A DNA stretch of 20,000 bases. It comes from an uncultured virus (IMG/VR IMGVR_UViG_3300025133_000035). Taxonomy: Duplodnaviria; Heunggongvirae; Uroviricota; Caudoviricetes. The notes under the pieces were generated by a model, which saw nothing but the letters and a program-made list of their open reading frames with translations, ran no database searches and was not told the origin of the DNA. The position numbers and the translations under genes are program-made. The stretch is taken from the IMG/VR virus record IMGVR_UViG_3300025133_000035; one strand, given 5' to 3'. Positions 16,154 to 20,000 of this stretch are shown here, in pieces (position 1 is the first letter of the stretch; the number at the start of each line of letters is the position of its first letter).

Positions 16154-17025
16154 ACCGCATTGATTTATATAACGAAATGATTTTGCGAGAGAACATCCGC
16201 AAAGCAATACGTATTGTTCAGAATAAGCGCTCAGGCGTTTTGACAGAAGACAACAAACTTCGAGCACTGATCCGCGCATTACTAAAAGAAGATAGTTCCG
16301 CTACCGAAGGTCCGACAATGAATACCGGCGGAAACGCACTGGATCAGATGCTCTTGAACACAAACACTCTCACAGAACTTGAGAAATCATACAAGACCCT
16401 CACAACCAGCGTTGAGCAAAGACTGTCATTTCGAGCACACATCATCAACGCAGTTGTTAAGGCACTAGGCATAGAACGCGTTAGCGGGCTTCCTAATGCC
16501 GCCGATGATACTACGACGGGCGGGGAGGAGGCTGACGCATTTGACGCGCTTGAAGAGGCAGTAAGAGTGCTCTATGAAACAGAGCTATCAGTAGGTGATA
16601 CCCCGGAAGATGAGGTTGAAGCAGAAGCGCCCTTGCTAGGTCAAGAGCCTGAAGAAGAAGATCCAGAGGAGGCTGCGAGAGCAGAATTTGCTAGCGGTGT
16701 CGAAGTTGATGATACAGGAGACAAGACCGGTCGCAACTATGCTCTTGATGCATGGAACAAGATTGAGAAGAATGTTACTGAAGCATATGCCAACCTAGGC
16801 GCCGAAGAAGACCGGAAACAATATTACGATTATTTGATCACTAACCTCAAACTATATTTTGACCAGTGGGAATCTGAGTTGGAGGGCACTCCTGAAGAGC
16901 CTACTACTCCAGAGTACGAAGCCGAGAAAGAGGCAGAAGCCACCGGTGACGATATGGGCGGGGAAGAGGTGGCAATGCCAGAAGAAGGTGGAGAAGACCT
17001 AGATTTCGAAGGACTAGAACAATGA
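16150..17025 (+). CDS. Acidic hypothetical protein (putative virion-associated)
   Basis: 291 aa; ATGA overlaps at both ends; LRENIRKAI and KLRALIRALLKE helices; globular-looking YYDYLITNLKLYFDQWE segment. Confidence 0.75.
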   Translation: MNRIDLYNEMILRENIRKAIRIVQNKRSGVLTEDNKLRALIRALLKEDSSATEGPTMNTGGNALDQMLLNTNTLTELEKSYKTLTTSVEQRLSFRAHIINAVVKALGIERVSGLPNAADDTTTGGEEADAFDALEEAVRVLYETELSVGDTPEDEVEAEAPLLGQEPEEEDPEEAARAEFASGVEVDDTGDKTGRNYALDAWNKIEKNVTEAYANLGAEEDRKQYYDYLITNLKLYFDQWESELEGTPEEPTTPEYEAEKEAEATGDDMGGEEVAMPEEGGEDLDFEGLEQ

Positions 17026-17741
17026 AAATTACAAAAACACAACTTAAACAGATTATTAAAGAAGAGCGGCAAGCGCTCATTAAAGAGAATATCATTTCGG
17101 ATATGGTCGACATCATTAAAGACTCAGGCGAAGACGTTTGGGACTGGATTAAAGATAATGCAGAAGCCGTAAAAGATGGCGCAGCCGGTGCCGGCGAAAT
17201 TGTCACGGACTTTATTGATGATCTTGTACAGGGCACGCTTCAACACGTTGATAGCGCAACCGACGCGTTTGCTGATAAATTTACGCACGGTCACGGAACT
17301 GCCTTTTCGCGTCAAGGCAAGCACGCGAAAAGAGATAGAGATAAGAAGTACGCTGCGGTTGTGGCGTCGAACGAAAAACATAGAGCAGAGACGGCGGCGA
17401 GGACTGCTGCTGCAAAACAGGCGATTATAGATCGGGAACAGGCGGAAGCCGATGACGAGGCGAGGGCACTCCGCAATAAAGAGAATGCAGCAGCCAACCG
17501 GCGTTACGACCTCGAACAACGCACAGCCAACCGGCTAGCAAGACTTAATAAGGCGCCTTCTCGGAAGCGCGGCTACCGACTGCATCCCTCCGAGGACGAA
17601 GAGGAATGGCGCGATTCCGGCGAGGGCAATGTCGGATACTCTCAAAGCCGACACTCCCCCCACCGCGAAGCCCTCGATCGTGATAAGCTTAAGCGCATGA
17701 TCGCTGAGGAATTAAAAGAAATTAGGAAGGATTCAAAATGA
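17022..17741 (+). CDS. Hypothetical protein with leader-like motif at both termini
   Basis: MKITKTQLKQIIKEE at N-terminus, LDRDKLKRMIAEELKEI at C-terminus; Arg/Ala-rich helical middle. Confidence 0.75.
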   Translation: MKITKTQLKQIIKEERQALIKENIISDMVDIIKDSGEDVWDWIKDNAEAVKDGAAGAGEIVTDFIDDLVQGTLQHVDSATDAFADKFTHGHGTAFSRQGKHAKRDRDKKYAAVVASNEKHRAETAARTAAAKQAIIDREQAEADDEARALRNKENAAANRRYDLEQRTANRLARLNKAPSRKRGYRLHPSEDEEEWRDSGEGNVGYSQSRHSPHREALDRDKLKRMIAEELKEIRKDSK

Positions 17742-18656: not shown

Positions 18657-18881
18657 ATGAAAATTACAGAATCACAACTTAAACAGATTATCAAGGAAGA
18701 GCTTGAAGCTGTTTTAAAAGAAGCATGCGGAGATCCGGATGAAGAAGAACTCACCCCAGAACAGATAGCATCTTTGGAAGAGCCTATGGATGCCACTGCT
18801 GATATGAGTGATGATGACGTTCTGAGACTAGCCGCAGCGCTGGCTGCAGAAGCCGCGGAATGGGGCGATGAGGACTGGTAA
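18657..18881 (+). CDS. Small acidic protein with leader motif
   Basis: Start moved to ATG 18657 (MKITESQLKQIIKEEL), after previous stop at 18649. Confidence 0.75.
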   Translation: MKITESQLKQIIKEELEAVLKEACGDPDEEELTPEQIASLEEPMDATADMSDDDVLRLAAALAAEAAEWGDEDW

Positions 18882-18947
18882 TCAGATCTAAGCGTTAACG
18901 CCTTGTAAAACTTTTGTAAAAAGATCGATTTTTCTTTCATTTAGTGC

Positions 18948-18976
18948 TTGACAAGACCTCCGGTTCGTGGTATATT
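18948..18976 (+). promoter_or_regulatory. Sigma70-type promoter with extended -10
   Basis: TTGACA 18948-18953, 17-nt spacer, TGn + TATATT 18971-18976, AT-rich upstream region. Confidence 0.7.
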
Positions 18977-19024
18977 ATAATTACTAAATTACTCTTACTT
19001 GATATTCTAAGTTAAGAAGGAAAT

Positions 19025-19384
19025 ATGAAGACTGGAAAGAATTTATACTATAGTATATCAAATAAGCTTCAGAAAGACAAGAAGATAAATGATGAATTTG
19101 AAATAATGATCAATTCCTTGACACTAGAAGAAGTGATTGCTTTAAAGCTTGAACTCTCTACTAGGTCTCTCAGAGGGAAATACTATGGATTCCCTATCTG
19201 GAAGTCTCTACCAGAACTTACTAGAGACGCAGTATTAAAATATGCTCTCTCAGCCACTCGATCGAAGAAAGAGGCTGCTCGCTTTTTAGGGATATCAATT
19301 TCAGAGCTTAATACAAATCTTAAAAACTATCAAACCGAATCTTTTTTTATCAACCACGGAAAGGAAAATGAAAGTAATGAGTAA
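19025..19384 (+). CDS. Fis-type helix-turn-helix DNA-binding protein
   Basis: VLKYALSATRSKKEAARFLGISISELNTNLKNY matches the Fis/NtrC C-terminal HTH pattern; SD AAGGA. Confidence 0.65.
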   Translation: MKTGKNLYYSISNKLQKDKKINDEFEIMINSLTLEEVIALKLELSTRSLRGKYYGFPIWKSLPELTRDAVLKYALSATRSKKEAARFLGISISELNTNLKNYQTESFFINHGKENESNE

Positions 19385-19405
19385 ACCATATATTTAACTT
19401 TATAT

Positions 19406-19608
19406 GGCTCATCAGAAGGTTTAACAATTTAAAGTGTGTCGGTTCTTTGCCTAAAACGAACCTTACTATTCCAGTTGTAGTTCCAGACCCCTCAGCGCCA
19501 CGCTGAGTTAAACTCCATATGACATTGGAGTATCCATCAGAAGGAATGGTAGTTAAAGATAGGCTGGCAAGCTAGTCGCGAGGAGCGCTAGTGATCTTCT
19601 CTTGAGTT
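19406..19608 (+). ncRNA. Candidate structured non-coding RNA of unknown family
   Basis: Intergenic; 5' and 3' ends complementary; five further internal helices found by eye; TATTTA motif at 19391-19396 just upstream. Confidence 0.45.
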
Positions 19609-19637
19609 TCTATAATATAACAAACAAAGATATATAA

Positions 19638-19865
19638 ATGAGTTGGAAAGTCTGGAAATGGGATGGGCATTATATTCAAGGTGAGCTAATTAGTAGTCAC
19701 ACCACTGAAGCAGCAGCCCTAAAGAAAGCGAAGAAGGTGATCAAACATCACCGTACGGAAAAGAAACAAGAGAAGAACGAGATCACCATTTGGCTTGACG
19801 CGAAAGACGGCACGCCACTTGGTGTGATCACCAAGAAGATAAACAAGAAAACTAAAAAAACTTAA
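19638..19865 (+). CDS. Small basic hypothetical protein
   Basis: 75 aa, Lys-rich; stop 1 nt before tmRNA 5' end. Confidence 0.6.
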   Translation: MSWKVWKWDGHYIQGELISSHTTEAAALKKAKKVIKHHRTEKKQEKNEITIWLDAKDGTPLGVITKKINKKTKKT

Positions 19866-19866
19866 T

Positions 19867-20000
19867 GGGGGCGACCCGGTTTCGACAGGGTAAGAAAGAA
19901 GAAAAGTGCAAGTAGTCAAACGTACCAGCAGACTTTAAATGCAGATACAAAACATAATTGCTAATAACAATAACCACTTCGATTCTGTACGCCTAGCGGC
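19867..20000 (+). ncRNA. ssrA: tmRNA (5' part; truncated by window end)
   Basis: 5' end GGGGGCGACCCGGTTTCGAC typical of the tmRNA tRNA-like domain; ATAATT then resume codon GCT at 19960; tag frame reads ANNNNHFDSVRLAA up to window edge. Confidence 0.92.

Follow-up and report, generated by a model that had tools for sequence, protein, structure and literature searches.

A covarying, pseudoknotted RNA family at the head of the tmRNA/tRNA region of large uncultured marine phages

The stretch of DNA analyzed here (the window, 20,000 nt) comes from an uncultured virus (IMG/VR record IMGVR_UViG_3300025133_000035) and forms part of a large phage-like contig whose sizeable open reading frames (ORFs) within the window all lie on the + strand. 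Toward its end the ORFs stop at 19384 and resume at 19638, which confirms the 253-nt intergenic gap (19385-19637) described in an earlier inspection of the letters alone (the sequence-only reading). Judged from the ORF list, this gap looks like the largest between + strand genes, and within it no + strand ORF reaches 20 aa. It is preceded by a gene for a 119-aa protein and followed by a gene for a small basic protein (ORF75) and by the 5' part of a phage tmRNA gene (Table 1). The tmRNA gene is cut by the window end and is consequently missed by ARAGORN, which reported no tRNA or tmRNA gene in the window, so that it is seen by Rfam only; the full gene is present in the relative L001 (3803-4136).

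A profile built from 14 homologues of the 119-aa protein matched Fis chains in the PDB at E 0.04-0.9, with profile positions 49-96 falling collinearly on Fis positions 49-97, and from such sequence comparison the protein may be regarded as weakly Fis-like. Its gene has at least 405 relatives in viral contigs, and a tmRNA or tRNA follows it in most loci. ORF75 belongs with 97 homologous clusters and has a predicted beta-beta-alpha-beta-beta-beta model (pLDDT 84.7), for which Foldseek gave no match in the PDB at E ≤0.001 and a wide VIA-align search gave no clear structural match, its best Z of 6.4 being to an unrelated domain. Neither protein was matched by tblastn in 50,697 phage records. Since ORF75 occurs in only 2 of 80 Fis-like-gene loci in viral contigs, we regard it as optional cargo. 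The only sigma70-like promoter upstream of the RNA in the window lies at 18948-18976, and a search of 19385-19440 gave no promoter-like site.

Table 1. Coordinates of genes, predicted signals and RNA elements around the gap.
Feature	Position	Strand	Remarks
Sigma70-like promoter	18948..18976	+	TTGACA-17-TATATT with TG; 11/12 consensus matches; predicted only
Fis-like HTH gene, 119 aa	19025..19384	+	ORF; Pfam HTH_8 E 0.002, below cut-off
P0 small hairpin	19386..19407	+	CCATATA/TATATGG; from the MFE fold; abuts closing stem
P1 5' strand	P1a 19406-19411, P1b 19414-19421	+	pairs with 19593-19608
J1/2	19422..19440	+	A/U-rich single strand, TAACAATTTAAAGTGTGTC
P2 hairpin	19441..19462	+	GGTTC/GAACC (19441-45/19458-62); 12-nt loop
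Pseudoknot 5' half	19449-19453	+	GCCTA; P2 loop bases
P3 domain (type-A expansion)	19464..19551	+	stem 19464-72/19543-51
P3 sub-hairpins	19491-19507, 19512-19531	+	inside P3 stem
Pseudoknot 3' half	19560..19564	+	TAGGC; partner of P2 loop 19449-19453
Linker	19565..19570	+	TGGCAA; family consensus U(A/G)GC(A/G)N (alignments A11, A12)
P4 hairpin	19571..19592	+	GCTAG/CTAGT (19571-75/19588-92); inner CGC/GCG, loop GAGGA
P1 3' strand	P1b 19593-19600, P1a 19603-19608	+	directly abuts P4
ORF75, small basic protein, 75 aa	19638..19865	+	between RNA and tmRNA
Phage tmRNA gene, 5' part	19867..20000	+	Rfam tmRNA 43.2 bits, E 7.5e-16; cut by window end

Our results confirm that the gap holds a genuine structured non-coding RNA on the + strand. 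The + strand folds at -68.2 kcal/mol, against -52.8 ± 4.3 kcal/mol for 200 dinucleotide shuffles (z -3.61), and none of the 200 shuffles was as good; on the - strand z was -1.38 and 16 of 200 shuffles did as well. The structure is thus specific to the transcribed strand. Rfam 15 gave no match at gathering thresholds in the whole 20-kb window, and at E up to 10 only chance-level, low-scoring matches within 19385-19637. The sequence-only reading had proposed an unassigned, multibranched RNA, some 200 nt long, in which it saw no signature of tRNA, RNase P, SRP or a hammerhead, and this description is supported by the empty Rfam result in the region, the absence of ARAGORN tRNA genes, the folding z-score and the covarying homologues presented below. 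Its suggested likeness to 6S RNA is not borne out: covariation backs a closed junction of four helices with a pseudoknot, whereas 6S RNA is one long hairpin of irregular shape with a wide central bubble resembling an open promoter; 6S RNA was not matched in the Rfam scans of the window either. The RNA spans about 19406-19608, possibly starting from 19386 if the small hairpin P0 is included. A TATTTA motif, pointed out earlier, is located in the loop of a small hairpin upstream of the closing stem. In the relatives L017, L040 and L087 the P0 site is occupied by another hairpin, GGTCG/CGACC, and in L001/L068 the equivalent hairpin competes with P1a.

The window RNA belongs to an uncatalogued family, which counts at least 70 loci among contigs of uncultured marine phages. 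A search with the 119-aa protein recovered 13 viral loci, the closest of which, L001, encodes a protein 90% identical to that of the window and is the only one with a copy of the RNA detectable by blastn (72.6% identity over 215 nt); the differences between these two RNAs are, by eye, compensatory. An alignment of ORF75 fetched 80 metagenomic loci, four of which carry window-type RNAs. A covariance model built from type A (R1) finds much shorter forms (130-150 nt) that occupy this position in further loci, and additional gaps, read by eye, contain more diverged type-B and type-C forms with the same layout. A second model (R2), whose seed comprised 17 short forms and no type A and whose only pairs are P2 and P4, nevertheless matches the window at 19441-19592 (31.6 bits, E 2.8e-6). 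R2 matches 37 of 72 viral loci besides the window (38 of 73 sources), as well as 34 of 80 ORF75-anchored loci and none of five loci chosen as RNA-less (34 of 85 sources). Every match is on the + strand, just after the Fis-like gene. About half of the related loci lack the RNA with no other visible change, and its presence or absence varies among relatives at one fixed site. These counts come from covariance models and not from a hand-written descriptor, which proved too permissive in scanning (about one false match per 1-1.5 kb). Of two strict patterns applied to viral sequences, one found already-known loci only and the other only the contig of L001. Blastn of the RNA against the 50,697 phage records gave no match, two exact-motif patterns had no match in 185,579 prokaryote genomes, and in 12 relatives scanned with Rfam only tmRNA passed.

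All forms share one order of elements: P1, J1/2, P2, a P3 insert, the pseudoknot segment, the linker, P4 and the 3' strand of P1. P2 has 5-9 bp and a 12-13-nt loop across the forms, and the P3 insert measures 9-44 nt in the short forms, against 71-101 nt with two sub-hairpins in type A. The pseudoknot joins positions 4-9 of the P2 loop to a 5-6-nt segment just 5' of the U(A/G)GC linker. In the search that located P1, its 3' strand begins 0-2 nt after P4; in the window P4 ends at 19592 and the 3' strand of P1 begins at 19593. J1/2 is A/U-rich in every type and near-invariant in type A (GGTTTAACAA), the P4 loop carries the motif G-Y-G-A-R-N-A across the family, and further conserved bases cluster in the junction and loops (alignments A11, A12). 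P1-P4 together form a closed four-helix junction, which a pseudoknot between loop and junction locks, and the family as a whole consists of compact, pseudoknotted non-coding RNAs of large uncultured marine phages.

Two alignments of different depth support this fold. RNAalifold on six sequences predicted 43 pairs, 11 of them with compensatory changes. In the type-A test set (six relatives, five of them distinct; alignment A4), with the full window fold imposed, 91.7% of the cells were paired and 15 pairs were compensatory, a number of both-side changes that none of 500 shuffles equaled. Six of the seven helices of the sequence-only reading hold. The two closing stems (19406-11/19603-08 and 19414-21/19593-600) have 96.4% of cells paired and two pairs changed on both sides; the helix TACTATTCC/GGAATGGTA that encloses the sub-hairpins has 92.6% paired and four compensatory pairs in type A; and ACTCCA/TGGAGT (19512-31), which closes on a TGACA loop conserved in type A, has three. 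GGTTC/GAACC is invariant in type A and covaries family-wide (98.5% paired, five of five pairs changed on both sides). CTCAGCG/CGCTGAG counts as holding, but is variable, another hairpin taking its place in L001/L068 and in L017 and none being present in L040 and L087. The seventh helix, GGCTGG/CTAGTC (19562-77), is wrong: it shows no compensatory pair, and all 500 shuffles equal it. Its strands are used by the pseudoknot (19449-53/19560-64), which the earlier fold lacked, and by P4 (19571-75/19588-92). P4 is 95.8% paired in type A with two compensatory pairs, and the pseudoknot occurs there as GCCTA/TAGGC, GTCTA/TAGAC and GTCTA/TAGGC.

Covariation is also seen in the 53-member, model-fitted alignment (A12), where 16 of 16 tested pairs changed on both sides. 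Here 85.4% of cells were paired, against 61.9% when shuffled and at most 55.3% (35-55%) when the partners were slid, and none of 500 shuffles reached the observed value in any of five measures. P2 was 98.5% paired (5/5 pairs compensatory) and the pseudoknot, which is not part of the model used for fitting, 88.7% (6/6). P4 was only 68% paired in A12, as its varying loop lengths shift the register; in a hand-registered alignment of 21 members all 84 of 84 P4 cells were paired. In that alignment 389 of 399 helix cells were canonical, against a shuffle mean of 260 (0 of 2000 as high), although the share contributed by P1 is biased because P1 was picked by complementarity. The best P1 of the 53 members averaged 8.1 bp, against 4.9 bp when the 5' region was shuffled, and P1 reached at least 7 bp in 39 of 53 members, against 15.5% of controls. 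Homologues thus exist and covary, by RNAalifold, in type A and in the 53-member alignment alike.

The phage's stable-RNA region begins with this RNA, which always follows the Fis-like gene. The RNA lies directly downstream of that gene and on the same strand in 52 of 52 relatives, at a median of 29 nt after the stop codon; in the window, 19384 is the last position of the gene and 19406 the first of P1. ARAGORN found a tmRNA or tRNA downstream in 39 of 52 relatives. In 24 of the 52 it starts 8-35 nt after P1 (median 18.5), the gene being a tmRNA in 19 and a tRNA-Gly in five, and in 15 it is 50-485 nt away, mostly with intervening ORFs (ORF75, a DUF2061-like membrane protein or a cytidylyltransferase-like protein). 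Elsewhere the gene after the RNA encodes an AhpC/TSA-like protein or a metallophosphoesterase. This downstream cargo is functionally unrelated, which argues against a gene-specific regulator.

Promoters and U-rich tracts vary around this fixed position. A sigma70-like site lies upstream in 33 of 53 members, and in 26 of these P1 begins 5 nt or more past the -10 box; types A and A' have no promoter between the Fis-like gene and the RNA, and in four type-B members the 5' strand of P1 lies inside the promoter spacer. L170 and L171 carry a 12/12 promoter, then the RNA, then a U-tract, and L112 has, by eye, a promoter-like site between RNA and tmRNA. At least six U in the eight positions right after P1 were found in 19 of 53 members; control positions gave 2.5-6.6%. 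These tracts should be interpreted with some caution, since RNA-less relatives have a promoter about 20-25 nt from the tmRNA and the same short U-rich leader; at least six U in eight were counted in 13 of 18 loci with the RNA and in 4 of 10 without it. The shared tmRNA leader therefore accounts for part of the U-rich sequence behind P1, which weakens an attenuator reading. In the window the tail after P1 (TCTATAATAT...) has only four U in eight, and no terminator-like site was found in 18800-20000, so an intrinsic terminator can be rejected there. The four RNA-library runs recovered, as contigs and not reads, cover the tmRNA and part of a relative's ORF75, and none covers 19385-19637, which is neutral as to expression of the RNA; a search of sequencing runs gave small shares only (0.04-0.09).

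Several known RNAs resemble the family in part. The tRNA cluster of phage T4 encodes two stable non-tRNA RNAs of unknown function, species 1 and 2 (rnaC/rnaD), which are co-transcribed with tRNA-type genes and matured by the tRNA-processing machinery. They share with the family the placement of phage-encoded non-tRNA RNAs among tRNA-type genes. The family differs from them in its four-helix junction with pseudoknot, its fixed Fis-like neighbor and its occurrence only in uncultured marine phage contigs (0 in 50,697 phage records), and we expect no relation of sequence or structure. In SAM-I (S-box) riboswitches a closing P1 is followed by a P2 whose loop contacts the P3/P4 junction, and P4 lies beside the 3' strand of P1. 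The likeness in element order and pseudoknot is one of architecture only: Rfam SAM-I (RF00162), SAM-IV and SAM-I/IV had no match in the window or 12 relatives, no kink-turn or SAM-core consensus was seen, and no methionine or SAM genes lie downstream.

A further likeness is to a glutamine riboswitch (glnA RNA) annotated beside a two-piece tmRNA in the OM43 phage Melnitz and in pelagimyophages (PMC9004378). It is likewise a small pseudoknotted RNA of large marine phages that adjoins a tmRNA and shares its predicted transcript, downstream of an early promoter; the present family differs in having a one-piece tmRNA, a larger fold (four helices closed by P1) and varying cargo. In scans of the window and 12 relatives (701 nt, 106 nt and 26 kb), the matches listed at E ≤10 did not include the glnA RNA (RF01739), a three-stem junction with E-loop and pseudoknot. 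Theta ribozymes, which are minimal HDV-like ribozymes, adjoin phage tRNAs and are proposed to aid their maturation (PMC10879173); they have their own cleavage site, abut the tRNA and process tRNA 3' ends, whereas the family RNA lies 5' of the tmRNA or tRNA. We reject an HDV-like or theta ribozyme. For the helix required by a nested double pseudoknot, the best complementarity between the 10 nt before the pseudoknot partner and either J1/2 or the 35 nt upstream equals that of shuffles (4.83 vs 4.71 and 4.81 vs 5.04), the 0-2 nt between P4 and the P1 3' strand leave no J4/2 for a catalytic C, and Rfam HDV-type families had no matches. A second pseudoknot was no better than shuffles either. The freshwater-1 model (RF02979) partially matched the type-B relative L054 over the P2/P3 hairpins, at 23.1 bits, far under the gathering threshold of 72, and we take the match as chance or remote likeness. 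This 62-nt model lacks P1, the pseudoknot partner and P4, and it matched one of 12 relatives and not the window.

We hypothesize, tentatively and from sequence-based evidence, that the RNA is a separately matured, stable small RNA, and favor this over a cis-regulatory leader. According to our hypothesis the RNA would be co-transcribed with the downstream genes and then matured to a discrete, exonuclease-resistant small RNA. Its paired 5' and 3' ends (P1) and rigid scaffold could present three invariant single-stranded motifs to a partner, whether protein or RNA: the linker U(A/G)GC, the RUURAAR stretch that precedes the pseudoknot and, in P4, the GYGARNA loop. RNase P matures the 5' ends of tmRNA and tRNA, and in most relatives the 3' end of the RNA could be set by its cut at the tmRNA or tRNA-Gly 8-35 nt past P1, or by a U-tract. 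In the window ORF75 may have come to lie between RNA and tmRNA, and the RNA would derive from the transcript of the 18948 promoter, either released endonucleolytically or staying as the structured 5' part of an ORF75-tmRNA RNA. As the window has no flanking promoter, U-tract or nearby RNase P site, a discrete species there is something we purely infer.

Several features support the stable-RNA reading. The ends are paired, as in stable RNAs; the RNA has its place among stable-RNA genes, where RNase P would define its 3' end in nearly half of the family; the cargo is too varied for a gene-specific regulator; and at least six U in eight follow P1 in 19 of 53 members. Moreover, L170 and L171, with promoter and U-tract, look like free-standing units, and L112 has, by eye, its promoter-like site before the tmRNA. 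The U-rich leader shared with RNA-less loci and the absence of the RNA from roughly half of the related loci weigh against this reading. The combination of a closed junction with a pseudoknot, conserved junction bases and a position after a promoter in 26 of 53 members is aptamer-like, and also counts against it. These same features favor a cis-acting leader, that is, a riboswitch-like aptamer or a protein-binding or antitermination element that would set polymerase read-on into the cargo and whose P1 could double, in part of the family, as an attenuator stem before the U-tract. We consider such a leader possible, at roughly one chance in three. The RNA would then head a transcription unit, as the upstream sigma70-like sites (33/53, with P1 at least 5 nt past the -10 box in 26) suggest; the order P1-P2-P3-P4 with a pseudoknot from the P2 loop to J3/4 recalls the SAM-I aptamer topology, the junction and loop bases are highly conserved, and U-rich tracts follow P1 in 19 of 53 members. 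A precedent exists in the glutamine riboswitch annotated as controlling the tmRNA of phage Melnitz and its relatives (PMC9004378). The leader reading is opposed by the mixed function of the cargo, unlike that of metabolite-riboswitch regulons, by the lack of a separate expression platform (the window having neither U-tract nor terminator), by the U-rich leader that RNA-less loci have too, by the lack of any Rfam riboswitch match even at E up to 10 and by the dispensability of the element in about half of the relatives. A bolder version, in which a new riboswitch-like attenuator class gates the phage tmRNA, tRNA-Gly and accessory genes on a cellular signal, with P1, closed by folding of the pseudoknotted junction and in many members placed directly before a U-tract, as the terminator stem (a minimal 'aptamer equals terminator' design) and the Fis-like protein or a small molecule of translational stress as effector, appears to us rather unlikely.

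Two further explanations give the RNA no trans-acting role. It might be an insulator or stability element between cistrons that protects the Fis-like mRNA as a 3' structure, provides a defined processing site between that mRNA and the downstream stable RNAs, or both. The RNA does abut the Fis-like gene in 52 of 52 relatives (median 29 nt after the stop), with the P0/P1 hairpins directly after the stop codon and, in the window and in types A and A', with no promoter in between. However, a simple hairpin would be enough for that task, while conservation of the pseudoknot, the linker and the loop motifs implies a more specialized role, and the strong promoter that separates gene and RNA in 26 members takes the RNA off that mRNA; we hold this explanation to be improbable. 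Least probable by far, and hardly credible, is an element acting as DNA with no functional RNA, such as a mobile mini-insertion whose inverted repeats mimic P1, or an operator for the Fis-like protein. Variable presence at one fixed site and the overlap of the P1 5' strand with the promoter spacer in four type-B loci would fit it. Against it, P1 covaries instead of keeping its sequence, the inner helices and pseudoknot covary as well, fold stability is strand-specific, five large viral contigs scanned whole hold one match each, with a weak second in the fifth, and neither of the two exact patterns matched any of the 185,579 prokaryote genomes. That P1 lies in the promoter spacer of those four type-B members is explained by neither the stable-RNA nor the leader reading.

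The data define a real, uncatalogued RNA family among the phage structured RNAs tied to tRNA and tmRNA genes; it is found neither in Rfam nor in 50,697 phage records. Large marine phages commonly encode a tmRNA of their own; to our knowledge, almost nothing is known of the expression and maturation of these tmRNAs. A widespread, covarying RNA family is now defined at the head of the tmRNA/tRNA unit, and RNA biologists are offered a compact, well-defined fold to probe, with its four-helix junction, pseudoknot and invariant loops. If the RNA is a stable, trans-acting species, it would join the few known phage small RNAs made together with tRNAs, and if it is a sensor it would represent a new regulatory class linking infection to ribosome rescue. 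Our literature search found no structured RNA motif upstream of a phage tmRNA besides the glutamine riboswitch of Melnitz. PMC10690425 reports 8,495 unnamed candidate RNAs predicted from IMG/VR, and the family might be among them. The covariance models permit annotation of a region that is now blank in marine viromes.

Viral contigs encode at least 405 relatives of the Fis-like HTH protein whose gene lies directly upstream of the structured RNA, and downstream of this gene there is nearly always a consensus sigma70-like promoter as well as a tmRNA or tRNA. Stable-RNA promoters are activated by host Fis. Because of this activity of the host protein, it is worth a look whether, by analogy, a phage mimic of Fis could drive the phage's own tmRNA/tRNA unit.

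Features near the tmRNA region (window positions unless a related locus is named)
Feature	Coordinates	Remarks
Acidic low-complexity ORFs	17022-17741; ~18657-18881; L119 1756-2067	Common N-terminal motif
Sigma70-like promoter	18948-18976	Consensus match
Fis-like HTH gene	19025-19384	Constant upstream neighbour of the RNA family; small protein, Fis-like by weak matches only
ORF75	19638-19865	Conserved small basic protein; 97 clusters (alignment A2)

On the other side of the RNA, the stop codon of ORF75 is separated by 1 nt from the 5' end of the tmRNA. Several homologues in alignment A2 have a frame that extends into the 5' end of the tmRNA, with C-termini such as ...GTKRIRQGKK, so RNase P cleavage would deprive the ORF75 mRNA of such homologues of its stop codon. 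The predicted fold of ORF75 (pLDDT 84.7) gave no clear structural match.

In the RNA library X9, a 206-nt contig with a depth of ∼56 starts 2 nt ahead of the predicted 5' end of the tmRNA (window 19867-20000). The contig is consistent with mature phage-type tmRNA being abundant in the sea, with the caution that contigs cannot prove the end. Immediately 5' of phage tmRNA, 24 nt before it, we observed a short U-rich leader, G(T/A)TCTTT(T/G)A(A/T)A(A/T)T, in L101, L102, L114, L141 and other related loci; it occurs both with and without the structured RNA.

In four type-B members of the RNA family (L066, L077, L094 and L041, at about 1335-1375 in each), closing helix P1 has its 5' strand inside the 17-nt spacer of a sigma70-like promoter scoring 10-12/12. 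A transcript from that promoter would be without P1, and it is possible that these loci produce two isoforms, or that the RNA arises by read-through from the upstream gene.

The several acidic, low-complexity ORFs have the N-terminal motif MKIT(K/E)(T/S)QLKQIIKEE in common and make up a paralogous family dispersed near the tmRNA region.

The complete 185-kb contig G005, which holds L156, contains a second, weaker match to the covariance model R2 (181575-181687, 24.6 bits, E 1.6e-4), far from the Fis-like gene, and this may be a diverged second copy of the family RNA. In the relative L015 (2250-2500) the Fis-like gene and ORF75 are separated by an 83-aa ORF, which fills the slot that the RNA has in the window; the slot thus accepts alternative inserts. 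In L169 (1760-1870) and L157 (814-920) the family RNA is followed, ahead of the next ORF, by a second stretch that looks structured and includes a terminator-like hairpin.
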